A stretch of 64,000 nt of DNA from a virus (IMGVR_UViG_3300028832_000146:440-64439), one strand, 5' to 3'. Counted from the stretch's first letter, positions 1 to 43,128 are shown. Notes: generated by a model not told the origin, from the sequence alone. A program made the numbers and translations.

Positions 1-525
1 TATCTTTCATATTGCGATCATCGATTAAAAGAAGTAGTAAGATGTAAATATGTTATAAGATACATGGACGATATTGTTATTTTATGAAAAAGCAAAAAGC
101 GATTAAGATATGTTTTTCGCAGATTAAAATGATATTTGGACGGTTGCTTGAATTTAAGAATTAAACCAAATTATCAAATATTCCCAACTGGTGTGAGATG
201 AGTGGATTATGTTTGATACAGATATTTTTACGGTTATAAATTATTGAGAAAATCAACCGCACAGAAATTCAAAAAGAAAGCATTACACCTAAAAGAAAAA
301 CAAGAAATGTGAATTGTTTTTAATTTTAGAGAATGGTGTGCAATGAATAGTTATGTTGGACGAATGTTTCATTGTAATTCATACAGATTATTTGAAAAAT
401 ATATTGATCCAATAATTCCCAGCATGAACAGATATTATTATTACGAAATCGGAAATAAAAAGAAAAACAAGCTGAAAAAGTATTACAGAAAATTGATTCG
501 TAAGAAATACAAGTCAAGAAAATAA
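1..525 (+). CDS. DGR reverse transcriptase, C-terminal part (5' end outside window)
   Basis: Frame 1 reads YLSYCDHWLKE..RYMDD..NYQIFP..GVDYVGY..SYVGWMFHCNSY with TGA=Gly and CGA=Trp; paralog of 31385-31903. Confidence 0.95.
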
Positions 526-530
526 ATTTA

Positions 531-562
531 AAGCTTTGATATTTGACATTCGTGATTATATT
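531..562 (+). promoter_or_regulatory. Conserved late-promoter-like motif upstream of the lysis module
   Basis: AAGCTTTGATATTTGACATTCGTGATTATA(T/A)T, recurring at 15120, 31917 and 48732. Confidence 0.6.
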
Positions 563-598
563 ATACATGACAAAATTTTACTTTTTATGTAAAGCAAA

Positions 599-883
599 AT
601 GAAATTATCAGCAACAACAACCAGTTCATCAATAGTTGATTTAATTAATGATGATGAAGTATTAGCATTAATTGAAGCAAAAAGAAATGCAAATGAACCA
701 ATTGAAATTGAAATAAGTGTTTGATCATGAGATTCAGTTTTTGTTGAAACAATATCAGATGAAGCTTCAACAACAAATTCTTATGAAGTAACAAGCACAT
801 TCAGATTTAAAACATATCAATTGGATCAAGTTTTTGTAATTGCAAGTGATAGCACAGATTTTAACATTCAAATCGTTTGATAA
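599..883 (+). CDS. Conserved hypothetical protein, 94 aa
   Basis: Open with TGA=Gly; homolog at 31997-32278. Confidence 0.8.
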
Positions 884-884
884 A

Positions 885-1115
885 ATGGAAATTTCACCAG
901 ATACAAGTTTAATTATAAATCTTTGAACGCTTATTGCATGTGCATTCTTTCTTCGGAAATTGAGTGCAAATATTACAAAATTCAAAGAAAAAACTGAAAT
1001 GGAATTAAAAAGTCACAATGAAAGAATAAATGAAATTGAATCATTGGATTTGAAAGCAATATTGATGAAAATTCAAACGGATTTGGAACGAATAAAGGAA
1101 AATATGCACAAATAG
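885..1115 (+). CDS. Small membrane/coiled-coil protein of the lysis module (XhlA/holin-like)
   Basis: N-terminal TM segment then coiled coil; CGG here aligns with TGG in the B homolog. Confidence 0.6.
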
Positions 1116-1158
1116 AAATAAACGTTGCAGAAAATTTTTTACATTCAATACATACCTA

Positions 1159-1374
1159 ATGAAACGAATTACAAAACTTTCAGTTACAAAATTGGTTTTA
1201 TTATTGTTGGTATTAACATTAATTGTAATTGAATTATACAAAGTTTTTAAAGGTTCTGAATTAGATCAGATTTTTGTTGATACTGTATTAATGGTTATTT
1301 CTTTTTACTTTGGACAAAAAGGAATAAAATACGATAACGTGGATTCAATAATGGAAGAAGAAAACAAGGAATAA
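1159..1374 (+). CDS. Putative holin
   Basis: Two TM segments, SFYFG motif, charged C-terminus; next to the peptidase. Confidence 0.7.
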   Translation: MKRITKLSVTKLVLLLLVLTLIVIELYKVFKGSELDQIFVDTVLMVISFYFGQKGIKYDNVDSIMEEENKE

Positions 1375-1403
1375 TTCTTTTATTCCCTATTAAATACGAT
1401 GAA

Positions 1404-1772
1404 ATGAAAAATAATCATGATCGTATTGATCATATTGATAATTGTGACGGTGTGCAGTATAAATTGGTGCGTGTAATTGATAAAACAGCAACAGACATTC
1501 ACCATATAATGTGAAAATGCAACAAGCATAAATACAACACCAATATTGATGAAAACAAAGTAAGAATTTCAAGAAGATTACATGTTGCATTAAATGGATT
1601 TTTTGGAGACAAACAAAACCCAAGAGATCAATTAAAGCAAGTTTTCGAAATTGTGAAGCCAGTATTGAGTGAATGAGTAAAACAAGAACTTTATACAATA
1701 CTGTATGAAGCAGATGATGAATTGTTTTACATACCAGAATTATTGAAGAAATGAAAGAAAAAGAAAAAATAA
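1404..1772 (+). CDS. HNH-like (beta-beta-alpha-metal) protein
   Basis: DIHHIMG..N..RRLHVALN pattern; same slot as the HH-motif protein at 32958. Confidence 0.45.
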
Positions 1773-1915
1773 ACGATTATGAATACAAACATTTGAGAAT
1801 ATGCAAGCATAACATACAACGTGAAAGTTGCAGAAATTGTTTATTTGAAGTGCTTTGTAGATTAGAATGAAATGATATTCACGATCAAAAGAAGATTTCA
1901 GAGCAGAAATGATAA
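1751..1915 (+). CDS. Small Cys/His-rich protein, unit A only
   Basis: CKHNIQRESCRNC in a 54-aa ORF. Confidence 0.45.
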
Positions 1916-1944
1916 AGAAATTTTTAAATTATAACAATAAAAAC

Positions 1945-2811
1945 ATGGAAGAAGAAATTATTTATGGTTGTTTGTGAACTGGTGAAGAAGCAACCGATTA
2001 TGTTCTTTGTGACGGTGATATTGATATATTGCCAAAGCTTTATAAACAAGATGAAATCAGATTTGAATACAATCAAGCGAATCAAAGTTGGAGTAAAGTT
2101 TCATGCACAATATTCAGTGCAATGTGAATGCTTTCAGATTTGATGAATTATGAATTTTCACTTGATGAATTACAAGAAGTTGACGAATTATCATACACAA
2201 AATGAAGAATCCGTTGACATGGTTGGTATGTAAAGCAAGCCGTTGATCTTGTTTGTAAATGGTGGAACGAAAAACATGGTGATTTATGAAAAGTTGCATA
2301 TTACAGAGTTTCAAAATATTCAGATATGGTGGATCAGATACTTGAAAAATGATACACAATAAACGGTAATTTTTGCCCAACAGCAGAATACAGCCAAGAT
2401 TACAGAAAAGACGCAGTATTGGATTGAACAGAATTTTGAACAAATACCAATGGACATGCAATTGATATAATCTGGAATAATTGAAAAAGAAGCACAAAAG
2501 ATTCATACAAATGAAGAAAAACAAGTGATTGAAAAAAAGATTGCAACAGATACGAATTAAAGCATAAATTATCAGAATTATCAAATTATGGAATGTGGTA
2601 TTATGTATTTACAAAGGTTGCAGAAGATAACCTTGAAGAATTAAAAAGATTAAACGAAATTAAAGCAAAAATAAATGAAGTAATGCCAATAAATTCACAA
2701 TTGCGACATTTAACAAATTCAGAACCTTATAAAAATAAATTACATGAAGCAAATAATATGTTGCGTGAATGGTTGGATTATATCAATTGAGAAATAATAA
2801 ATCTTTCATAA
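1945..2811 (+). CDS. Papain-like cysteine peptidase, candidate endolysin
   Basis: YNQ..SCTIFSA (Gln/Cys), NGHAIDI (His), KDSY; follows the holin; homolog at 33261. Confidence 0.65.
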
Positions 2812-2866
2812 AAAAAGATTTTGCAATTTGTATGTTTTTTCGTAATATATCTTTGCAAATGTGTAG

Positions 2867-2897
2867 ACAGAACGCAAGTTCTGTTTTCTTTTTTTAT
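2867..2897 (+). terminator. Intrinsic terminator after the lysis module
   Basis: ACAGAAC-GCAA-GTTCTGT plus T tract; conserved at 34184-34212. Confidence 0.75.
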
Positions 2898-2937
2898 CTG
2901 AAAAATTAAATCAGACAAAGAAAATCTGAATTCAAGC

Positions 2938-2996
2938 TTGATTTTACTATTGACAAAAATTAAAATATATACATTGCATAAGTAATGCGTAGAGCC
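2938..2996 (+). promoter_or_regulatory. Recombinase promoter with operator-like motif
   Basis: TTGATT-17 bp-TAAAAT, then TTGCATAAGTAA at 2974-2985; conserved in B. Confidence 0.6.
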
Positions 2997-3025
2997 AAAT
3001 ATATTTATTTGTTTATTTTTTCAAA

Positions 3026-3952
3026 ATGAAAAATTTGCTTTATGACTTTTTGCAATATTCCAAAGATATCAATTACAGATCAAGCGACACATTGGTTCAT
3101 TATAAATACGATATGTTAAAATTTATTGAATTCATGAAATACAAAAAATGAAAATTCGAAATAAACGTTGAAGATGTAAAATTCGCAGATTGTATTGAAC
3201 GGCTTGAAACATACAAAGAAAACAGAAAAGTTTCAAGAAGCACACTTTCAACATTATCAAATTCTTTACGCCAATTTTTCAAATACAGTGCAATGATCTG
3301 AAAAAAATTACAATTTAACGTTGAACAATTACCAATTATTAAAAAAGAACGCAAACCATACGATATGATGAAAAAAGAAGAATATGAAATATTGGTTCAA
3401 GCACCATTAATTTATGAAGAATCACCAATACTTGCAGAAAGGAATCAATTATTAATCGAAATACCATACAGAACATGATTACGCCGTGCAGAAATATTAC
3501 GTTGCAAATTCGAACATTTCCACAATGAAAACCGCCAATTCCAGATATTATGAAAAGGCGGTTATCATGATCGAGTATTTTTTACCGAAGATTTAAGAAA
3601 TAAAGTTTTGCATTTTGAAGAAAGTATAAAAGAATTCACAAAAAAAAGACCATTCAAAATGGATTTTTTATTTGTTTGATTAGATAATAAAAATCGATGA
3701 AAGCCACTTGCACCAAAATATATTAATATTTTATTCCGTAAATATTCCGAACATCTTATAAATGAATGAAAGATTACAAGAGTATTACACCCGCACATGG
3801 AACGCCACGCATTCGCCACAAATTGCGTTTATGCTTGATTAAGCCAGCAAGCAACAACACGTTTAATGCGTCACCGTGATCCAAAAACCACTGAATGATA
3901 TTATCACATGAATGATACATGGTTAAAATCACAATTTGATAAAATATCATAA
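3026..3952 (+). CDS. Tyrosine recombinase (XerC/D-like, 308 aa)
   Basis: TGLRRAE, GKGG, HPHMERHAFAT, MRHRDPKTTEGYY catalytic motifs. Confidence 0.9.
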
Positions 3953-4074
3953 CATATTTTTTTCAAAAGTAAAATTTTTCGAGCTTTTCGGAAAAATCGA
4001 ATAGTTTAAAAATATAATTCATAACTGTAATTTTTTATTGCAGTAATTTTCTTATTAAAAAAGTGCAAAAAAAT

Positions 4075-4102
4075 TTGACAAATAAAAAATTTTTCTTATA
4101 CT
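4075..4102 (+). promoter_or_regulatory. Early promoter
   Basis: TTGACA-16 bp-TATACT; B has TTGCAT-16 bp-TATAAT at 35394-35421. Confidence 0.65.
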
Positions 4103-4248
4103 TGATATTGTCAAACAAGATATTAACACATTTGCTGAAATTTCTTGATCTTGTTATTCATTACTCTAATCGGTTGGATTGTTTCCACACACTCACCATA
4201 TAGAGAATATCAGTGTGTTGGAGTAAATGAATAAATATATAAGAAACC

Positions 4249-4279
4249 AAGCGGTGTGATAATATCACATCGCTTTTTC
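4249..4279 (+). terminator. Terminator inside the early leader
   Basis: AAGCGGTGTG/CACATCGCTT plus T tract; compensated equivalent at 35528-35560. Confidence 0.7.
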
Positions 4280-4342
4280 GTAATTACTTATGCAAAAGGT
4301 TCTACAATACAAAAAGCATGTAAGTTTGACAAAGAAAACAGA

Positions 4343-4426
4343 GCTTGCGTGCGTTTCAAAGCAACCATACGAATCAGTTGGGGAAATCAGCACGCAAGCG
4401 ATCCAACTGGTTCATATGGTTGTTTT
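4343..4426 (+). ncRNA. Structured leader RNA (long hairpin plus pseudoknot) upstream of the initiator
   Basis: ~23-bp stem 4358-4381/4403-4426; loop 4390-4399 complementary to 4343-4352; covaries with the B copy. Confidence 0.7.
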
Positions 4427-4498
4427 AATTTGTTTCAGTTCACATATGAGCCGTTGCACCACTACACACATTTTATTTTCTAAAACAAGGTTCTACAA

Positions 4499-5254
4499 AT
4501 GAATGAAGAATTAGAAAGAATTACGATTTTCAATTCTTATGTAAGAAGCATTGACCAGCTTGCAAGATGAGATATGCAACTTGCACAAGAGCTTTCTTAT
4601 TGGATCATTCAATTCTGAATTAAATGAATCGAGCCACCAGCAGATTCAAACCCGTTCATGCTTTCAGTATTCGAGCAAATCAAAGAGCCGTTAATGAATG
4701 GAAGAAAAAAATCAATGAACGGTAAAACAAAATCAAAATCAGATGAAGAAGAAATCAAAGAAGAAACGGAAATTGAAGAAAAAAAATCAAAACAAAATCA
4801 AAATGAAATCAAAACTGAATCAAAAGAAAATCAAAACGAAATCAAACCGTGACAAAATATAAAATATAAAAGAAAAAAGAAAAAAGAAGAAAATAATATT
4901 TCATTATCTAACGATAATGAAAGTGCAAGCACGGGAGATTATTGAGATTCAGAAATTAACGAATGTTTGGAAATTATTAAATCGTTTAATGGTTGAATAA
5001 TTGATTGAACACAAAAATCAAATCGTATTCGGTGAAAAAATTTAATTTGAAAACTTAAAAAATCGGAATTTGTGCAAAATCAGAATTACACACGGCAAAA
5101 CACTTTAACGGCGGTGTTGAACGTGGTTGCACAAAACAAGTTTTATGTGAGCAAGATTACATCACCAGAATTGATTTATAAAAATTTAGCAATTTTATTT
5201 CAAGTTTGCAGACAAGAATGAATGAATCAAACACCACAAATTGAAGTGCTTTAA
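4499..5254 (+). CDS. Putative replication initiator
   Basis: Conserved N-terminus, repetitive AAATCAAAA-rich centre, divergent C-terminus; first gene of the early operon. Confidence 0.6.
4725..4848 (+). repeat. Iteron-like AAATCAAAA repeats inside the initiator gene
   Basis: Several tandem aaatcaaaa/gaatcaaaa units; similar run at 36030-36085. Confidence 0.5.
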
Positions 5255-5565
5255 AGGTTTACAAAGAATTGACGTTTGTAATTACAAGGGACGGTGATGT
5301 TTATACAACAACAGCCACGCCAGATCAGATTTCAAAGCTTTGTGAAAAATCAAGGTTCTTGAAATTGTGAAGTGATTACATTGCAGTTGATAGAATTAAA
5401 AAGTTGACCGTAAAGCCAGCAGATGAAATTGACAATGCATTATTGCAGATTTCAGACAAAAATTTACGTGCAAGAGTTCAAGCAGAAGTTGACGAAAGAA
5501 GAAGAACATGATCACGCTTGAACATGGAAATTTATAAAAACATTTTAGATCGTTTCTCGAAATAA
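5218..5565 (+). CDS. Conserved hypothetical protein
   Basis: Homolog at 36506-36835. Confidence 0.75.
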
Positions 5566-5567
5566 AC

Positions 5568-5741
5568 ATGCCAAAAGAAGAAATCGAAAGACTTGAATGA
5601 AAAGTTGGGTTCAAGCTATTCATCAGACGTGTTGGTTTAAAAAACTTTGATGAATATATGCAGTTGTTCGGTAATGATCGAGCAAAAAGACAAACAGCGG
5701 TTGAGTGGTTTATTGAAGAATACCCAAACCAAGCAAATTAA
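5568..5741 (+). CDS. Conserved hypothetical protein, 57 aa
   Basis: Homolog at 36838-37014; CGA aligns with TGG. Confidence 0.75.
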
Positions 5742-5765
5742 TTTTATATCAGTTATTAAGCGAAA

Positions 5766-6377
5766 ATGACAGATAAAGAAACACCAAAATTAAATTTATT
5801 CATGAAAATTCAAACTGTAAAAAGCAAATTGCTTCAAGCGAATTTGAAGAAATCATGAGAGAATAAACATGCATGATTCAAGTATTATGAGCTTTGAGAC
5901 TTTTTACCAGCCATTGTTGAATTATGTAAAGATAACAGATTATACACACAAGTATTATTCGATAACGAAACAGCAACATTATTGATTATTGATTGTGATG
6001 ATCCAACACAAATTGTTCAATATACATCGCCAATGCGTGACGTTGATTTGAAATGATGTCAACCAATTCAAGCATTATGAGCGGTTGAAACCTACCAACG
6101 CAGATATTTATATTTAAATGCGTTTGATATAGTTGAGAATGATACACTTGACGCAGTTGCATGAGATGATAACAAGCAACCAAAGAAAGCAGAAGTAAAA
6201 AAATTCAGTAATGAAGATTTGGAAAGGTTGAAAGCAAAAACAGATTATTTGAAGAAATTTGCAACATCAGATGATTTGTTAAAGGACATTCAAAAGTTCT
6301 TTTCAGTAGATAAAGACATGAAAATGAAAATTGCAGATGTTCGAGCAGAAGTTCCAGAAGAAAAACCAGCAGAATAA
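5766..6377 (+). CDS. erf: ERF-family ssDNA-annealing protein
   Basis: KKSGENKHAGFKYYELGDFLP..GCQPIQALGAVETYQRRYLY..FDIVEND. Confidence 0.85.
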
Positions 6378-6400
6378 TTTACATCTTAAAAAACAAGGTA

Positions 6401-6862
6401 ATGACAAATCAAGATACAATTGAAGAATTCGATGTTGCAGAATTATTACAAAAGCAAGAAAACAACGCAAACGAAGTTGATGAATTAATATCAAAGCACG
6501 AAAAATTCAAAGCAAAGTGATTGAAATTAACAGATCAAGATATGTTTGATCGAGTTGCTTTATGGGAAAATATGAAAGATAAAATTACAGAATTAAAAAG
6601 CACCTATTATGAAGAAAAGCAACAAAACGACGTTAAAAAAGGTGCAAGAATGGTTGAATTAAAAGCAATGTTGAACGAGCAATGAAAAAAAGTTCATACA
6701 GATTCAACAGCAGACGCATTAATAAAGCAAGAATTCCAGCAACGTGATAATGAAATATCAATTCACAAATTGCAAGCAGAATTATTGCAGAATAAAGCAG
6801 ATTGCGTGCTTGAATATATCAACATCGTAAAAATCCACATTAAAAAAGATTTTAGCATGTAA
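6401..6862 (+). CDS. Conserved coiled-coil hypothetical protein
   Basis: Homolog at 37664-38119. Confidence 0.75.
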
Positions 6863-6871
6863 TTTACAAAC

Positions 6872-7099
6872 ATGATAACGTATACAAAAAATAAAATCAT
6901 TGCAGATAATAATTGAAAATCAAAATCAGTGGAAATCGACACGGTATTATGAGCCGTAAAATGAAAAAGCCGATTCCTTGCAAGGTTATGAATTGCAATG
7001 ATCCTTGCAGAAAAATTAGAAATATCATCAAAGCAAGCATTCACGGTTGCATGCACAATGAAAGATGATTTCGAAACCTTTTACAACTTAAACAAATAA
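6872..7099 (+). CDS. Conserved hypothetical protein
   Basis: Homolog at 38131-38355. Confidence 0.75.
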
Positions 7100-7100
7100 A

Positions 7101-7922
7101 ATGAAAAACAAAACAATAATTATTTATGCATTAATCGTTCTATTTATTCTTGTTATGTGATGAATCTTTGTCACATACGCAAGCAATAAACAAGAGCCAA
7201 TCCAAAAAATTTTAAATCAAATTGAAGCCAACGAATCAGAGTTGGAACAGCTTGAAATCAAACAAGCAGAATTAAATCAAGCCAATGAGCAAGCCAAAGA
7301 AGAATTATTGAATAAATATGGATTGCAACTTTCAGAAGAAAAAGAAGAAAAAAAAACAGATTTATCATCAATGCTTTATGATGATAATTGAAACTGTATT
7401 TGATGAATAGGTTGTGAACCTAACGAATGGACACCATGAAAATTAACAGAAAGTGGTGATCATCAAGAAATGCCAGAAATCAAAGCAACAGATGAACACG
7501 AAAGATTCAAAGAACTTGCAACAGCATATTGACTTGACGCAAGCACAATATGGAGTGTTGAAAACCATTATTGAATTAAAGAATGAGTTATTTTATGCAT
7601 AACAGTTGCAGAAACAAGCGGTTGAAATCGTGGTTATGGTGAAAAAAACATATGAAGTGTTTGAAGTAATGATCGTGGTGACCGCCCAACGTATGCTTTA
7701 ATGGAAGCTTGACTTGAAGCAATAGGTAAAACATTAAACAACCAATATTTATGAAGTAAAAAAACTCTTTGATGTTTAAGTAATGCTGGATCATGCAACG
7801 AATCCAACGATAATTGAAAAAGATACGCAACAAGTGAATCAAGCCGAGAAAAAAACATGGTTGCATGTTTATCAACAATTTATGGATCAGTAAACGCCAG
7901 CACGTTTGGTATTAGAAGATAA
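7101..7922 (+). CDS. Membrane-anchored lysozyme-fold (glucosaminidase-like) protein
   Basis: N-terminal TM, coiled coil, LCITVAETSGG..NIGSVG..YATS motifs; homolog at 38359. Confidence 0.55.
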
Positions 7923-7949
7923 TTTTTATTTCATTTATTATTTCAAAAC

Positions 7950-8366
7950 ATGGAAACACCAAAAAATCAAGGGGGGGGGGAGACTTTACAAACCTTTACT
8001 GTAAATCCAGCATTTCTTCTACAAGATATGCCAATTGATTTCTTTGACTTTCAATTCATCATGAATGCAGATTGAACATTAAAGGAAACAAAATTTAAAG
8101 ATCAGATTTTAGAACCAGCAATTTGAAGTTCATTATTCTTAATTAAAGAGAAATACTTCAAAAAGGTAAAACAACATAAAATTGACAAAAAGAAGATTGA
8201 AAGCCACAAACAAGAAAAAGAAAACATGCTGAACGCATGGAAAATTCAAAAAGAACATTATCAGTGACACATCAGATACCAAGAAAAAGCATTATGAGAA
8301 AAGAACAGATTATTAAAAGCAATATGATTAATTGCACACAATGTAGAAAAAGTAAATCAGAATTAA
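7950..8366 (+). CDS. Conserved hypothetical protein with a G10 tract at codons 8-11
   Basis: In frame through G7971-7980; homolog at 39149 also has G10. Confidence 0.8.
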
Positions 8367-8391
8367 TCTTTATTTCATAATTAAACAAAAC

Positions 8392-8994
8392 ATGTTTGAA
8401 CGAATTAAAAAATTATTCATGAGAAAATGAATAAGCAAGGTGGTTGTTGATACATTAAGAGAGCAAAACCACCGCTTAAAAGAAAGAGTTGCAGAATTAG
8501 AGCAAGCAACCGAAAAGAAATTTTGTTCACACTGTAAGGAACGAAAACCAATTACAGAATTTAATAAAAATTGTTCGAAAAGAGATTGATTACAAAGTCA
8601 GTGTAAAGAATGCCACAAAGCAATGATGAGCAGAACGCCAAAAAAAGAATTGCAAGAATGCAAGTTCACGCCGTTTGAAAAAGAATATTACGGCGGGCGT
8701 GTTGTTGTAAGTGAAAGATATTTCACATACGAAGTAAATGGAATTGTTTATGTATTAATTGATTCATTCAGATTTAATTATTTGTGCGAAAAATTCTGAA
8801 AAGAAATGGTGAAATTGAAAATCGAACAGATGATTAAATACAACAATAAAAACCACCTTTGGAAATCAAATTATGATTATTATTACAGATTAAAAGCACG
8901 ATGTCAGAAAGAACAGATATTACAAGATGAAAAACAGCAATTAAATTTATTTCAAAACCAAGATTTAGAATGAACGCACAATGTTCAATCGTAG
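8392..8994 (+). CDS. Zinc-finger protein
   Basis: CSHCKEWKPITEFNKN..DGLQSQCKEC; homolog at 39593. Confidence 0.7.
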
Positions 8995-9362
8995 ATTATT
9001 GGAAAGAACATTGATGATGAAGATATTGAAAAGTAAGTTACAGTTGCTTTTACGATAGGGTGAAGCATTGACGAAGTCGAGAAGAAGCAATCCAAAAACA
9101 AACAAGGAAATATTGCAACAGTGTTTACAAGCCAAAACAACATGCACAAACAAAAAACGAATTAAAGCCAGAATATTCATGAATTAATATCACATACAGC
9201 AAAGAAGAAGCAAAAGTTTTTAAAGAAGCATTTGAGAAAATCATCAATGATCTTTTAAAGAAATACGAATCAATAGAAGAACCGCAAGAAGCAAATAAAA
9301 TATTTGAAAAAATTGAAAAGGTGAAAGCAGATTATCAAATATTTTTACATCACAATTCATAA
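8970..9362 (+). CDS. Conserved hypothetical, possibly DNA-binding
   Basis: RVKHGWSWEEAI motif with CGA=Trp; homolog at 40148. Confidence 0.65.
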
Positions 9363-9366
9363 CAAA

Positions 9367-9639
9367 ATGAAAAATCCAATAGACAAAAAACTTTACATGA
9401 ACCAAATGAAACGAGATTCACAATTACAAAGATTGAATAAAGAAAAAGATATGAAGCAAGAAATTATGATATTAAAAAACGAAAAAGCAGAATTAAAAAA
9501 CGAAAACGCAGAATTGAAAAATCAAATCAGACAATTTGCAGATTGATTCCAATTGCTTGCAAAGAAATTAAAAGAAGCCAATAAAGAATTGGATCGTTAC
9601 AAAAAAACACAATCTTTTAAACCAGTAATAATAAAATAA
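9367..9639 (+). CDS. Coiled-coil hypothetical protein
   Basis: Homolog at 40526-40786. Confidence 0.7.
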
Positions 9640-9837
9640 TGCACATATTATTTTCAATATTAACAATATTTCGATCAGTGATTTATTTGATCACGTTAAA
9701 AGATACGAAATTAATAATTGCACTATTATTTGCAATACTTTCAATTGCATATTAAGAAATTCGGAATTTCCGAAAATAGCAGAAAAAACGGAAATTCCGA
9801 TTATTTAAACAATTTTACATCTTAAAAAATCCAGAGA

Positions 9838-10341
9838 ATGAAACGATTAATAATATCAGCAACTGTAATTATGATTTCAATGTATTTGGTTGTTGCACGG
9901 TATATTTGACAAATGCCACCAGATGAACCACAAATTATAACTTGCGATGAAAGATACATATGAGATTCTTATATATGAGTAATAAAATGGAAAGATTGAG
10001 ATTACATATATTTATCATGAATGCATGAATTAGATACGATATGCACACCATACGAAGAAGAAGTTGACGAAGAAACGCCATTATGTTGAACAAAAGTTCC
10101 GTTTGAATGACCATTAGATACAAGCAATATGAATTGTTATTATGATAATCCGAAAAGCAAATTAAAAGCTTTCAAAAAGCAAGCAGAAGCAGAAAAGAAA
10201 GAAGATGAAAGATATTATACGTGTAAAATAATAACATATGATGTTGTGCAAATGTATAATAGTTGTGAAACATCAAGTTGTGTGACAAATAGATTAAGAA
10301 CATATTTTCAAGAAAATTGCCCAAGAGCCAATATTGAATAA
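9838..10341 (+). CDS. Cys-rich exported or membrane protein, unit A only
   Basis: Hydrophobic N-terminus when CGA/CGG=Trp; open with TGA=Gly. Confidence 0.65.
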
Positions 10342-10368
10342 AATTTTACATATTGTTCATAAAACATC

Positions 10369-10629
10369 ATGGAAAATAAAACAGAACGATTTGTTATATA
10401 TGCAACAGAATCATGAGATTATGAAACCGCAGAATTTGAAGCAAAAGATTTATTTGATTTTGCAAGAGAAATGAACGAGCGGTTTTGATGAAGCATGAAA
10501 GAAATCGTTTTAATCGTAGACAAAGCATATATTGATCCATTTTTTCGGAATGAATATGAAAAAGCATTCTGAAACGGCGTAGAAACACAAATTTTATTAA
10601 AAAAACTTTTAGATTTTAAGTTACAATAA
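10369..10629 (+). CDS. Hypothetical protein, unit A only
   Basis: 86-aa ORF under the recoded table. Confidence 0.6.
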
Positions 10630-10633
10630 CAAA

Positions 10634-10843
10634 ATGCAACAAAGTTTATTATCAGATTGAAAAAAGCAATTCTTTTATGAAAGCTGGTTGAATAACAAAA
10701 CCGCAAGAGACCAGAAAGAAAAAGAAGTAAAAGCAAGATGATATAAAGAAATCCACAAATGACAATATAATTGTCAGGGGGGGGACAATTTATTTCTTAA
10801 CTTGGAGATAGCATGCCAAAAAAAGTATACCGCAAGGATTTAA
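10634..10843 (+). CDS. Hypothetical protein with a G9 tract, unit A only
   Basis: ORF crosses G10777-10785 and overlaps the next gene by 31 nt. Confidence 0.5.
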
Positions 10844-11178
10844 CCATAAAAAGCAATGATCCGCAATGGAAAAAATTTGTTGATTATTACAACCAACGGC
10901 GGGAAGAAAAATTCAAAGAAAAATGATATTTCAAATACACAATGAGATTTGATGATGTGCATATAATATCAAAGAAAATGTGATTCGTAAAACGGTTGTG
11001 TGATAATAATAAAATCACACGAACAGAAGTTTACACATTAGATAAAACACACCCAACATATTGATATACAACATCACCATATACAACGTGCAAAAGCATA
11101 AAATTGGAAAATACAATTACAATGATCTTATCAATTCAAGAAAACCCAATAACTTTTATTTTGTGAATTTTGGAATAA
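10813..11178 (+). CDS. Highly conserved hypothetical protein
   Basis: Near-identical homolog at 42064-42429; CGG and CGA interchange at one aligned site. Confidence 0.8.
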
Positions 11179-11193
11179 AAAAGTAAATAAGAT

Positions 11194-11260
11194 TTTGCAT
11201 TCTACGAGACAATAATTATATTTTGTGTATGCATAAGTAATTATTGTTTTGTAGAACCTT
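11194..11260 (+). promoter_or_regulatory. Promoter with operator-like motifs upstream of the NinG-like gene
   Basis: TTGCAT..TATATT, then ATGCATAAGTAA and TTGTAGAACCTT; conserved at 43069-43100. Confidence 0.55.
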
Positions 11261-11287
11261 TGATTTAATTCAAAGGTGTTTTCATTT

Positions 11288-11749
11288 ATGCCAAAGAAAG
11301 CCAAAAAACCAAAGATTGATAAAAAAAAGCTGAATGATGAAAATGTAGAAATTGCAAAATTAATTGCAAAAGCAAGAGATCATTATACATGCCAGCATTG
11401 TTGAAAAACAATCAAAGAAACAGCAATACATGCAAGCCACATAATTAATGAAGCAAGAGATCACAGACTTGCAAGTGATCCATACAACATAAAAGCATTA
11501 TGTTATAATTGCCACATAAATCGGCGACATAAAAACCCAATAGAAGCAAGTCAATGGTTTAACGAAAAGCGACCGTGAAGATATGAAGAATTGCAAGCCA
11601 AACATATCGAATACATGTGAAAGTGAAGCATTGATGTAATCCGAATGATTGAAAGAAATCAAGAGTTAAGGAAAACATGTGCAGAATTGAAAATCGATAT
11701 TTCAAAGTTCAAGTATGGTGCAAAAATTTATAATGATAAAGAGTGATAA
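11288..11749 (+). CDS. ninG: NinG/Rap-like HNH nuclease
   Basis: CQHCG..HASHII..NIKALCYNCHINWWHKNP (CGG CGA = WW). Confidence 0.75.
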
Positions 11750-11750
11750 A

Positions 11751-12230
11751 ATGCCAAAGCAAAAGCGAGATTATGAGAAAATAAAAATGGAATTCATGCT
11801 TTCTGATTTTGACGAAGTGAAATCATATATTACTCATAAATGAATCACATATAATGCAGAACGAACGAGACGCACAAAATGACGGTGAAAAGAAAAACAA
11901 GAACGGAAGAAAAAAATATACATGGAAGCATTAAAGAAGAAATGAAAAGAAGCAGTTGATGATGTTTCAAAAAAATTGGAACGTTACGAAATGCTTTGAG
12001 ATGAAATATTACAACGAATGGAAGAACAATTTAATCCAGTTGGTGAAGATTGAAAGCCAAGAAAGATAAACAGCAACGATATAATGAATATATGGAAAAT
12101 CAAAAGAACGGAAATGTGATTACCAACCAACATTTCAAAAACCGAAAACACAAACAAGGACGAAAGATCAGAATTAACAGATGATGAAAAAGAAGCATTA
12201 AAAGAAATATTGAAAAAGTCAAGCAAATAA
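11751..12230 (+). CDS. terS: Terminase small subunit (putative)
   Basis: Directly upstream of TerL; KWDY..KGWGKEK N-terminus; homolog at 45216. Confidence 0.65.
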
Positions 12231-30790: not shown

Positions 30791-31903
30791 ATGAAAAGAT
30801 ACTGAAATATTTATGAAAAAATTTATGATCTTGATAATCTTAAAGAAGCACACAAACAAGCAAGAAAAGACAAACAATTATACAGAGAAGTGAAAATGGT
30901 AAATGCAAGCGAAGAATATTTCTTAAAGAAAATTCAAAAGCTTCTGAAAGAAAAGAAATATCATATTACAGCAAAAGATTATTCAGTTTCAATAATCCGA
31001 GACAAAACCAAATCAAGAGAATTACGAAAATTAAAATATTACCCGCACCGTATAATACAGCGGGCGATCATGCTTCAAATTGAAAAATACTTTATGCAAA
31101 TTTTCACAGATTTTACATGTGCAAGTATTAAATGAAGATGAATGAGCCACGTTATGGAATTAATGGATAAATACATGAGAGATGAAAAAGGAACGGCGTA
31201 TTGTTTGAAAATTGATATTTCCAAATTTTACCCGAACGTAAACCACAGAATTTTAAAGAAGTTATTAAGGAGAAAATTCAAAGATAAAGATTTATTGGAG
31301 CTTTTGGACATGATCATTGATTCTTTTCCATGAAAAAGGGGCTTGCCAATTTGAAGTTATTTATCCCAATTTCTCGCCAATTTTTATCTTTCATATTGCG
31401 ACCATTGGTTGAAGGAAAAAGTAAAATGCAAGTATGTTGTAAGGTATATGGACGACATTGTTATATTATGAAAAAGCAAAACATGGTTGAGATATGTTTT
31501 TCGTAGGTTAAAAGGTTATTTGGACGGTTGCTTGAATTTAAAAATAAAAGCCAATTATCAAATATTTCCAACTGGAGAAAGGGGTGTCGATTATGTTGGT
31601 TACAGATATTTTTACGGGTATAAATTATTGAGAAAGAGAACCGCCGAGAAATTCAAAAAGAAAGCATTGAAATTAAAAGAAAAACAAGACGCATGAATTA
31701 TGCGGAGTTATAGGGAATGGTGCAGTATGAACAGTTATATTTGACGAATGTGCCACTGTAATTCATACAGATTATACGAAAAATACATTGATCCAATAAT
31801 ACCGTCTTTGAATAGGTATTATTTTTATGAAATATGAAATGAAAACAAGAAAAAGACGAAAAAATATTACAAAAAATTAATAAAAAAGAAATGAATGGTG
31901 TAA
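30791..31903 (+). CDS. DGR reverse transcriptase, 370 aa
   Basis: RELWKLKYYPHRIIQWAIM, LKIDISKFY, GLPIGSYLSQ, RYMDD. Confidence 0.95.
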
Positions 31904-34124: not shown

Positions 34125-34343
34125 AAAAATAAGATTTTGCATTTTGTAAGAAAAAAGATATATTACATGTGCAAGTGTGTAAGACAGAACCGCAAGTTCT
34201 GTTTTCTTTTTTATTCAAAAAATCAGTTGCACATCGTAAAATGTGCGATTTTATCTTGATTTCACTATTGACAAAAATTAAAATATATTTATTGCATAAG
34301 TAAAACGTAGAGCCAATATTATTTATTTGCTTTTATTTTTAAA

Positions 34344-35276: not shown

Positions 35277-35625
35277 AAATTAAAATGTAAAGCGAATCAA
35301 ACATTTTAAGATTTTCGTAACATGCGAAAACCATAATTAAAAACAAGGTTTTCAATACCTTGTAATTTTCTCGTAAAAAAAGTGCCAAAAAATTTGCATT
35401 TTAAAAATTTTTGTATATAATAGACTTTGTTAAACAAGATACACATTTGCGAAATTTCTTATTCTTGTTATTCAATAACACTTATACATTCAATATGGTG
35501 AGTGTGGGGAAACAAGCCAACAGAAATAAAGCAATGTGTATACAGCCACATTGCTTTTTCATAATTACTTATGCATAAGGTTCTACAAGTGAAAAGCAAG
35601 GCGATTGTTTAACAAAGGAAACAGA

Positions 35626-35702
35626 GCTTGCGGATCACGAAAGCGACCATATGAGTCAACTGGGCGACCGCAAGCGTTTCAGTTGATTCATATGGTTGTT
35701 TT
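35626..35702 (+). ncRNA. Structured leader RNA, B copy
   Basis: Stem 35640-62/35680-702; loop CCGCAAGC pairs with GCTTGCGG at 35626-33. Confidence 0.7.
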
Positions 35703-42961: not shown

Positions 42962-43128
42962 AAGAAAGCCAAAAATTTTAACATGAAATAATGAATATGT
43001 TAAAAAATTTAACATGAAAAGAAAAAATAAGATTTTGAAAACAGCAAGGATTTAATTATATTATTTGTATGCATAAGTAATTAAATTCTTGTAGAACCTT
43101 TGATTTATATTCAAAGGTGTTTTCATTT

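Follow-up and report, generated by a model that had tools for sequence, protein, structure and literature searches.

Plasmids and the satellite P4 are known to restrain an early operon chiefly through riboregulated termination, a mode of control that, to our knowledge, has not been established for an ordinary tailed temperate phage. In the IncI-alpha and IncB plasmids, the partner of a hairpin loop lies downstream, beside the rep ribosome-binding site (RBS), and the resulting pseudoknot turns on translation, which is coupled to a leader peptide. In pCF10, Qs acts back on prgX. The immunity RNA of P4 is cut out of the leader transcript by RNase P together with further nucleases. The attenuator of pT181 is a leader with a two-way fold, one of the two forms being an intrinsic terminator, and a small antisense hairpin RNA favours the terminator (PMC3753616). 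In pCF10, Anti-Q biases the nascent prgQ leader towards its terminator (PMC3181467). The CI RNA of P4 turns the early operon off by premature termination, through RNA pairing on the same strand within the leader (PMC4825925, PMC10111431).

The locus described here belongs to the virus record IMGVR_UViG_3300028832_000146, a 64.4-kb IMG/VR entry. The stretch analysed, hereafter the window, is 64,000 nucleotides long and covers nearly all of it; coordinates are counted from its first letter. Translation table 11 breaks up every gene, whereas code 25 opens all of them on the + strand. Since a TGA codon stands at the conserved glycine of the recombinase TGLR motif, the host most likely reads TGA as glycine, and is thus most likely of the Gracilibacteria/Absconditabacteria type. 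We know of nothing published on gene regulation in the phages of bacteria with this code, whose hosts are unculturable. The record holds two diverged units of ~31 kb, A and B, arranged in tandem, head to tail, which could represent a tandem double lysogen, a heterodimeric circle or an assembly chimera. It starts inside a gene for a DGR-type reverse transcriptase (PHROG 1423, 4.2e-27; window 1-525 and 30791-31903).

Each unit exhibits the same order: a lysis-side gene, the integrase, a gap of ~550 nt that contains the RNA element, and the early genes. In unit A, the lysis-side gene is the last one before the integrase and has its stop at 2811, the integrase occupies 3026-3952 (+ strand; Pfam Phage_integrase, 2.6e-19), the first early gene 4499-5254 (+ strand; 251 aa under code 25), and an Erf-like recombinase (5766-6377) is found 3' of the latter. 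The first early gene had been taken for a replication gene in the original prediction. This assignment does not hold: the only match of the gene is PHROG 15768, of unknown function, a Pfam search gave no match, and relatives carry a different gene at this place. The same leader indeed precedes different first genes in relatives (4499-5254 versus L130:3930-4661, as well as L007 and L134), which makes the leader a module recombining independently of its gene. Among the 20 ORFs tested in 1-12230, no HTH or repressor family was recognised, in agreement with the earlier statement that no CI-like repressor is discernible, although many ORFs have no annotation.

Both units possess a near-consensus early promoter of the sigma-70 type in a promoter scan. 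In unit A it spans 4075-4102 on the + strand (TTGACA, 16-nt spacer, TATACT; 11/12 matches), and its hexamer positions are almost all invariant among 12 leaders. From the predicted transcription start near 4109 to the ATG at 4499, the leader is ~390 nt long, as had been proposed; ~320 nt of it make up a structured RNA that ends with the element described below. The 5' domain of this RNA (4109-4331, + strand) is closed by a long-range helix of 8 bp, P0, between UGUCAAAC (4109-4116) and GUUUGACA (4324-4331), and encloses the hairpins H1 and H2, the terminator-like hairpin T1 and two invariant boxes. P0 is 100% paired according to RNAalifold and pair counts, one of its pairs being doubly changed, from C-G to U-A, in leaders of the B type, and three other leaders having a U.G wobble. 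T1 (4249-4279, + strand) folds at -17.5 kcal/mol with a z of -6.1 and covaries across leaders, which confirms the intrinsic terminator previously reported at this place as a terminator-like hairpin.

Two further features of this domain were observed. The H2 hairpin is inverted between lineages (4156-4233 versus 35460-35539): leaders of the A, L131 and L134 types have it one way, those of the B and L007 types the opposite way, as seen from an nhmmer match on the opposite strand, and the flipped form spans whole lineages. CA/UG-rich boxes recur in H2 and T1. Coding readings of the leader were rejected: the ORFs that might encode a leader peptide are unconserved (70 aa in A versus 13 aa in B) with indels that are not multiples of three, and a minus-strand ORF at 4166-4471 is missing from unit B. 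A minus-strand promoter at 4332-4304 was discarded as the source of a countertranscript, its -10 being unconserved, and no promoter-like site was found on the minus strand 3' of the element in A, B or L131. Finally, neither the 3' arm of H1 nor a copy of the second box, both considered as partners of the early RBS, covaries with it.

The element itself comprises a long hairpin, S2, and a complementarity, S1, between the loop of S2 and a segment upstream of it. In unit A, S2 occupies 4358-4426 on the + strand (5' arm 4358-4381, apical loop 4382-4402, 3' arm 4403-4426); in unit B, it occupies 35640-35702, also on the + strand, with arms 35640-35664 and 35678-35702. The 5' arm of S1 is located at 4343-4352 in unit A (+ strand; GCTTGCGTGC, or GCUUGCGUGC as RNA) and its 3' arm, inside the S2 loop, at 4390-4399 (GCACGCAAGC). 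The corresponding + strand arms of unit B are GCTTGCGG (RNA GCUUGCGG, 35626-35633) and CCGCAAGC (35668-35675). Motif scans and integrase-anchored scans retrieved the same leader from about 20 contigs, found in IMG/VR, in rumen and goat-gut metagenomes and among mis-binned MAG contigs. Four MAG matches were found to be the same phage contigs, mis-binned. These contigs yield 11 distinct variants of the element, 10 of which have S2 unflipped. The metagenome scan was anchored on flanks outside S1 and the S2 apex, and the sample is therefore unbiased by them. Scans of viral and genome contigs with 14-mer and 17-mer motifs gave almost only chance matches, a search with the lower-stem pattern gave one chance match, in coding DNA, and GenBank phages gave none. 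A covariance model of the element, R1, gives family members 84-112 bits, whereas its scores do not exceed 23 bits over 886 kb of DNA from unrelated phages, where no further member was found.

Because the MAFFT and Infernal alignments misplace gaps at the S2 apex and at S1, the pairs of both helices were indexed from fixed anchors. Counted from its base, S2 is a bulge-free helix of 24-26 bp in every variant. It folds at -36.4 kcal/mol in A and -37.0 kcal/mol in B (z of -5.1 and -5.9), and the reverse strand folds worse. Over the 10 unflipped variants, the bases pair in 97.9% of the cells, as compared to 31-48% with slid partners. Double changes occur at six positions (position 20, for example, is G-C, A-T or T-A), and the covariation score, 0.368 against a shuffle mean of 0.23, is reached by none of 2000 shuffles. 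Pair counts on the alignment of 12 leaders again give 97.9% paired, with a covariation score that none of 500 shuffles reaches. G.U pairs, 1-5 of them per variant, are seen exclusively on the + strand, and in L130 two basal G.U pairs are changed to G-C. The loop is invariant and the apical stem drifts. The long stem with compensatory changes in both units, on which the original prediction was built, is thereby confirmed: S2 is a strand-specific, covarying + strand RNA helix under selection.

S2 ends in a U-rich tail, UUUUAAUUUG (4423-4432, + strand), the first four U of which pair with the AAAG of the stem base; from TTTAATTTG / UUUAAUUUG onward, this tail is invariant in all variants. In L131, the homologue of S2 together with its tail was flagged as a + strand intrinsic terminator by a terminator scan. 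S2 of unit A was not flagged, its loop length alone placing it outside the rule of that scan. By these features, S2 and UUUUAAUUUG constitute a predicted intrinsic terminator upstream of the early genes.

S1 joins the invariant CGCAAGC of the S2 loop to an invariant GCUUGCG located ~5 nt upstream of the stem base. It is 8-13 bp long, with a perfect match of 8-11 nt, and an equal complementarity arises in 2-88 of 20000 loop shuffles (at most 0.44%). Pairs 1-7 are invariant, pair 8 changes from T-A to G-C and pair 11 from T-A to A-T. The pairing of the loop with an upstream segment was thus rightly recognised as a complementarity, whereas the covariation claimed for it, with two double-change pairs, is thin. 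Other copies of GCTTGCG and CGCAAGC were considered as additional loop targets and rejected: they fall within coding sequence, and the window contains comparable 7-mers, alike in composition, just as often.

The two helices appear to compete. Each lineage has its own extension of S1, which overlaps the S2 apex in five variants; the extension of the L131/L134 type, CAUC/GAUG, takes nucleotides of that apex. In the five variants, the S2 loop has 8 nt on a 26-bp helix, the 5' arm of S1 lies 5 nt from the helix base, and the connector following the 3' arm of S1 measures 0-3 nt. Since a loop of 8 nt would not bridge a helix of ~70 Å, S1 and the complete S2 should exclude each other. This geometric inference argues for two competing folds and against the hairpin plus pseudoknot, both helices standing, that had been proposed. 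Folding points to a succession of the same two states: when the transcript is folded up to the 3' arm of S1, the minimum free energy structure is S1 in 10/10 unflipped variants (-17 to -25 kcal/mol), while at full length it is S2 (-31 to -41.5 kcal/mol). The modelled layout is attenuator-like, with the peculiarity that the partner of the anti-terminator would be the terminator's own loop. In the long-loop variants, a partial pseudoknot made of S1 and the lower stem of S2 could perhaps form, in which case S1 may not block termination.

The flipped variant, L133 (contig IMGVR_UViG_3300037455_000524), carries the apical 34 nt of S2 as an exact inversion of those of L134 (L133:3005-3040 versus L134:3800-3835), bounded by CATATG palindromes in both arms of S2. 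In this variant, A.C mismatches take the place of three G.U pairs, and the loop, now GCUUGCGG, cannot form S1. As L133 is the only flipped variant among the 11 and its inversion is uncompensated, the event seems to be recent and probably disfavoured.

A search for the complement of the leader block GAAAACAGAGCUUGCG uncovered a site between the lysis-side gene and the integrase promoter, at which we predict a small RNA of ~40 nt, sRNA-X (2855-2896, + strand). It would consist of a 5' tail with an invariant GUGUGUA, a 9-bp hairpin (2865-2886) with the apex AACGCAAGU, and a U-tract. Its promoter is predicted at 2821-2848 on the + strand (TTGCAA at 2821-2826, a 16-nt spacer, TAATAT at 2843-2848). 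The promoter scan flagged the equivalent in unit B (34136-34164) and left unit A, with 8/12 matches, unflagged; among 14 relatives the -35 and -10 are conserved and the spacer drifts. In both units, the terminator scan flagged the hairpin, located at 34181-34205 (+ strand) in unit B, on the + strand; sRNA-X folds at -10.5 kcal/mol.

The part of sRNA-X formed by its loop, 3' arm and U-tract (2872-2891) is antisense to the leader segment AAAGAAAACAGAGCUUGCGU (4331-4350, + strand), at the 3' side of which the S1 5' arm begins. In 11/11 lineages checked, the two form 18-20 contiguous base pairs, always with a wobble between a leader G and an sRNA-X U. The cognate duplexes reach -33.4 (A) and -36.8 kcal/mol (B), values attained by none of 500 shuffles (-12 +/- 3). 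The cross-allele duplexes, at -29.3 and -31.0 kcal/mol, are only 4-6 kcal/mol weaker than the cognate ones, and the co-resident units A and B differ at one core-pairing position only. The leader columns GAAAACAGAGCTTGCG are almost all invariant among the 11 variants, and the block GAAAACAGAGCUUGCG is almost wholly so, beyond what S1 needs; its pairing with sRNA-X would account for this constancy. The S2 loop in cis and sRNA-X in trans consequently compete as partners for the segment 4331-4350, and the likeliest trans-acting RNA is the predicted sRNA-X rather than the S2 hairpin.

The three sites vary together. An S1 arm ending in GCG-U goes with an S2 loop A-CGCAAGC and an sRNA-X A-CGCAAG, and in the alternative allele an S1 arm ending in GCG-G goes with C-CGCAAGC and C-CGCAAG. 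This U/A/A or G/C/C rule has no exception in the genomes with data, including L007 and L292, whose flanks are mosaic. As the family is narrow and holds two S1 alleles, the three-way covariation represents perhaps two or three independent events.

The surroundings of sRNA-X provide two further observations. A -35 block, (A)AAGATTTTGCA(T), is common to the sRNA-X promoter and to the putative late promoter of the HNH/terminase block (2812-2826 and 11186-11200 in unit A; 34128-34141 and 43026-43040 in unit B), and the two promoters may form one co-regulated class. The GUGUGUA tail of sRNA-X (2858-2866) is complementary over 7 bp to an invariant CUACACAC at 4468-4477, ~20 nt upstream of the Shine-Dalgarno sequence of the early gene, a match that could be either a second contact or a low-complexity coincidence.

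The leader carries other sequences that are potentially antisense to transcripts of the phage. Between T1 and the 3' strand of P0 lie the invariant + strand boxes 1, AATTACTTATGCA (4282-4294), and 2, AAGGTTCTAC (4296-4305). They are the reverse complements of the predicted first 12 nt, and of the adjacent 8-16 nt, of two transcripts, that of the integrase (2975-2996) and that of the HNH/terminase block (11230-11262), both located at predicted 5' ends. In unit B the boxes occupy 35564-35586 and their complements 34293-34314 and 43070-43102. Box 2 covaries with its targets across lineages, the differences giving G.U pairs; in the L134 type, it consists of 16 perfectly matched nt of a different sequence, and the cognate duplexes are the best in every row. 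The two boxes do not follow each other in the order that one continuous duplex would require. In the HNH/terminase transcript, a hairpin CCUUUGA/UCAAAGG followed by GUUUUCAUUU (11257-11290) buries the Shine-Dalgarno sequence of the first gene of the block (ATG at 11288), and its 5' arm overlaps the segment complementary to box 2. The 12-mer in the boxes being quasi-palindromic, a protein operator is possible as well; the boxes at 4282-4305 would therefore serve either antisense control by the early leader RNA or binding of a protein at TGCATAAGTAAT.

We propose that the element is the decision point of a transcription attenuator controlled by antisense RNA in the leader of the early operon, a reading to which we would give an even chance. 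In the growing transcript, the S1 helix (8-13 bp plus the lineage-specific extensions) would form first and would block or delay the complete S2, so that the polymerase reads through into the early genes. When sRNA-X occupies 4331-4350, S1 would be barred, S2 would fold beside its U-tract, and transcription would end before the early genes. The outcome would be prophage immunity or early shut-off. The in silico evidence consists of three RNA elements that are complementary and covary jointly, together with the features of a terminator; from it we infer the folding order, the direction of the effect and its biological role. L133 counts against this attenuator model: it keeps sRNA-X and its target and yet cannot form S1, so that its early operon would be locked off. 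Further points against it are the narrowness of the family, the 8/12 match of the sRNA-X promoter in unit A, and the single core-pairing position by which the co-resident units differ. More generally, the phage probably switches its early genes by RNA pairing, without a repressor protein. The undescribed RNA control of the early operon envisaged at the outset is in its core supported and strengthened by a strand-specific covarying RNA and by sRNA-X, whereas the static pseudoknot gives way to two competing folds, and sRNA-X is likelier than the hairpin to act in trans.

Alternatively, sRNA-X could be a late product, transcribed from a promoter of the late type or left as the 3' end of the lysis-side transcript, and could shut the early operon during lytic growth and not in lysogeny. 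Its promoter has the -35 block of the putative late promoter that precedes the HNH/terminase block, and a late-phase role fits this better than immunity does. The sRNA-X hairpin also lies directly 3' of the last gene before the integrase, where the terminator of the lysis-side gene would be expected, a position that counts against the attenuator reading. Nevertheless, we find this timing unlikely, as sRNA-X belongs to the lysogeny module, beside the integrase, and no repressor protein was recognised that might keep the strong early promoter silent in lysogeny.

In a scheme modelled on the CI RNA of P4, S2 itself, left as the 3' end of stopped leaders, would be a stable immunity RNA that acts in trans, its loop pairing with the S1 arm of other nascent leaders and thereby enforcing termination. 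A long, imperfect and stable hairpin with a GC-rich loop of 8-19 nt, on the same strand as its target, corresponds to the layout of P4 CI and seqA (PMC4825925, PMC10111431), and an invariant loop on a drifting apical stem would agree with such a function. On the other hand, the Rfam families of C4 and isrK remain unmatched at E<=10, no second target of the seqC kind occurs within 900 nt, the S2 loop offers 8-13 bp as against the 18-20 bp of sRNA-X, and its effect in cis would oppose its effect in trans. We regard this scheme as distinctly unlikely.

S2 might also be an ordinary terminator or attenuator, and the GCTTGCG/CGCAAGC repeats might act at the DNA level, as operators or as tracts homogenised by recombination, with no role for RNA pairing. 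Such a view would explain why S1 pairs 1-7 never vary and how L133 can exist without S1, and the neighbouring 12-mer motif, quasi-palindromic, does resemble an operator. It is nonetheless very unlikely in our opinion: mismatches between sRNA-X and the leader copy always give G.U on the transcribed strand, the sites lie within a transcribed, structured non-coding RNA in which the G.U pairs of S2 are strand-specific, the three-way covariation is kept across mosaic genomes, and the search recognised no DNA-binding regulator. An H-type pseudoknot of the static kind, in which S1 and S2 stand together in a cis fold like that of the IncI/IncB rep leaders, would suit the interleaved a-b-a'-b' order and the conservation of both complementarities, but is highly improbable given the geometric argument from the five tight variants (8-nt loop on 26 bp, connectors of 0-3 nt and 5 nt), the S2 apex nucleotides used by S1 extensions in those same variants, the distance of the partner from the RBS and the lack of a conserved leader ORF.

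If the attenuator reading is extended to the boxes, the whole decision between lysis and lysogeny could be taken on RNA, without a repressor: sRNA-X would force termination at S2, and the ~320 nt leader would act back on the integrase and late mRNAs. We put this forward tentatively, as a possibility that we would not call probable. If true, it would represent a reciprocal all-RNA switch in a complete temperate phage of code-25 hosts, of the Gracilibacteria/Absconditabacteria type. The locus is best read as an undescribed RNA device of narrow distribution, which would provide a new architecture of antisense-controlled transcription attenuation. Its predicted design is unusual in that the loop of the terminator is also the partner of the anti-terminator, and in that the trans-acting RNA mimics this loop. 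The system is compact and fully specified: it comprises a 320-nt leader behind a strong promoter of the sigma-70 type, a 40-nt RNA, and alleles of two natural kinds, and it could be rebuilt in a laboratory host; it might offer a new orthogonal RNA attenuator for synthetic biology. The three covarying sites, moreover, give a sequence signature for finding similar circuits.

The original prediction placed the element beside P4 CI, P1 C4 and the IncI/IncB pseudoknots, a likeness that does not extend to kinship, as by any membership test the element is unrelated to them. A cmscan of the whole window against Rfam at the gathering score gave 0 matches, and both leaders searched at E<=10 gave generic hairpin noise only, C4 (RF01695) and isrK (RF01394) being absent; the novelty expected of the element is to that extent upheld. 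With repZ/repA of IncI-alpha/IncB, it shares a hairpin loop that pairs with a distant leader segment and an antisense RNA that competes for this pairing. Here, however, the partner is upstream, with ~150 nt between it and the ATG at 4499, conserved leader ORFs are lacking, and the helices would be mutually exclusive. With P4 (CI, seqA/seqC) and C4 of P1/P7, it shares the pairing of RNAs from the same strand, predicted premature termination and the absence of a classical protein repressor. Unlike P4, with its seqA and seqC, there is one target here and not two: no conserved second target of the seqC kind was found within 900 nt downstream in 10 variants, apart from an isolated 9/11 match in L134. 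The best antisense partner, furthermore, would be transcribed outside the early transcript, from a promoter and up to a terminator of its own, whereas the P4 RNA is processed from that transcript.

RNA-OUT and RNA-IN of IS10 provide a parallel for the contact itself: pairing starts between a GC-rich loop, borne by a long imperfect hairpin, and an unstructured target, and then extends down one arm (PMC3753616). RNA-OUT, in contrast to sRNA-X, is a countertranscript that blocks translation, whereas the target described here is separated from the RBS by ~150 nt and its occupation would probably lead to termination. The comparison with pT181, pIP501 and pCF10 concerns the leader as a whole. Their sequences show no homology to this locus, the setting here is a phage, sRNA-X is encoded on the same strand as its target, ~1.45 kb upstream and with 18-20 nt of complementarity, unlike their countertranscripts, and the competing helix uses the loop of the terminator and not one of its arms. 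The principle would nevertheless be common to all: mutually exclusive leader folds, here predicted in silico, that include an intrinsic terminator upstream of the gene, and a small RNA complementary to the segment required for read-through, as is sRNA-X to the S1 5' arm in 11 lineages. Like Qs of pCF10, finally, the terminated leader of this phage would carry sequences antisense to the mRNAs of other operons.
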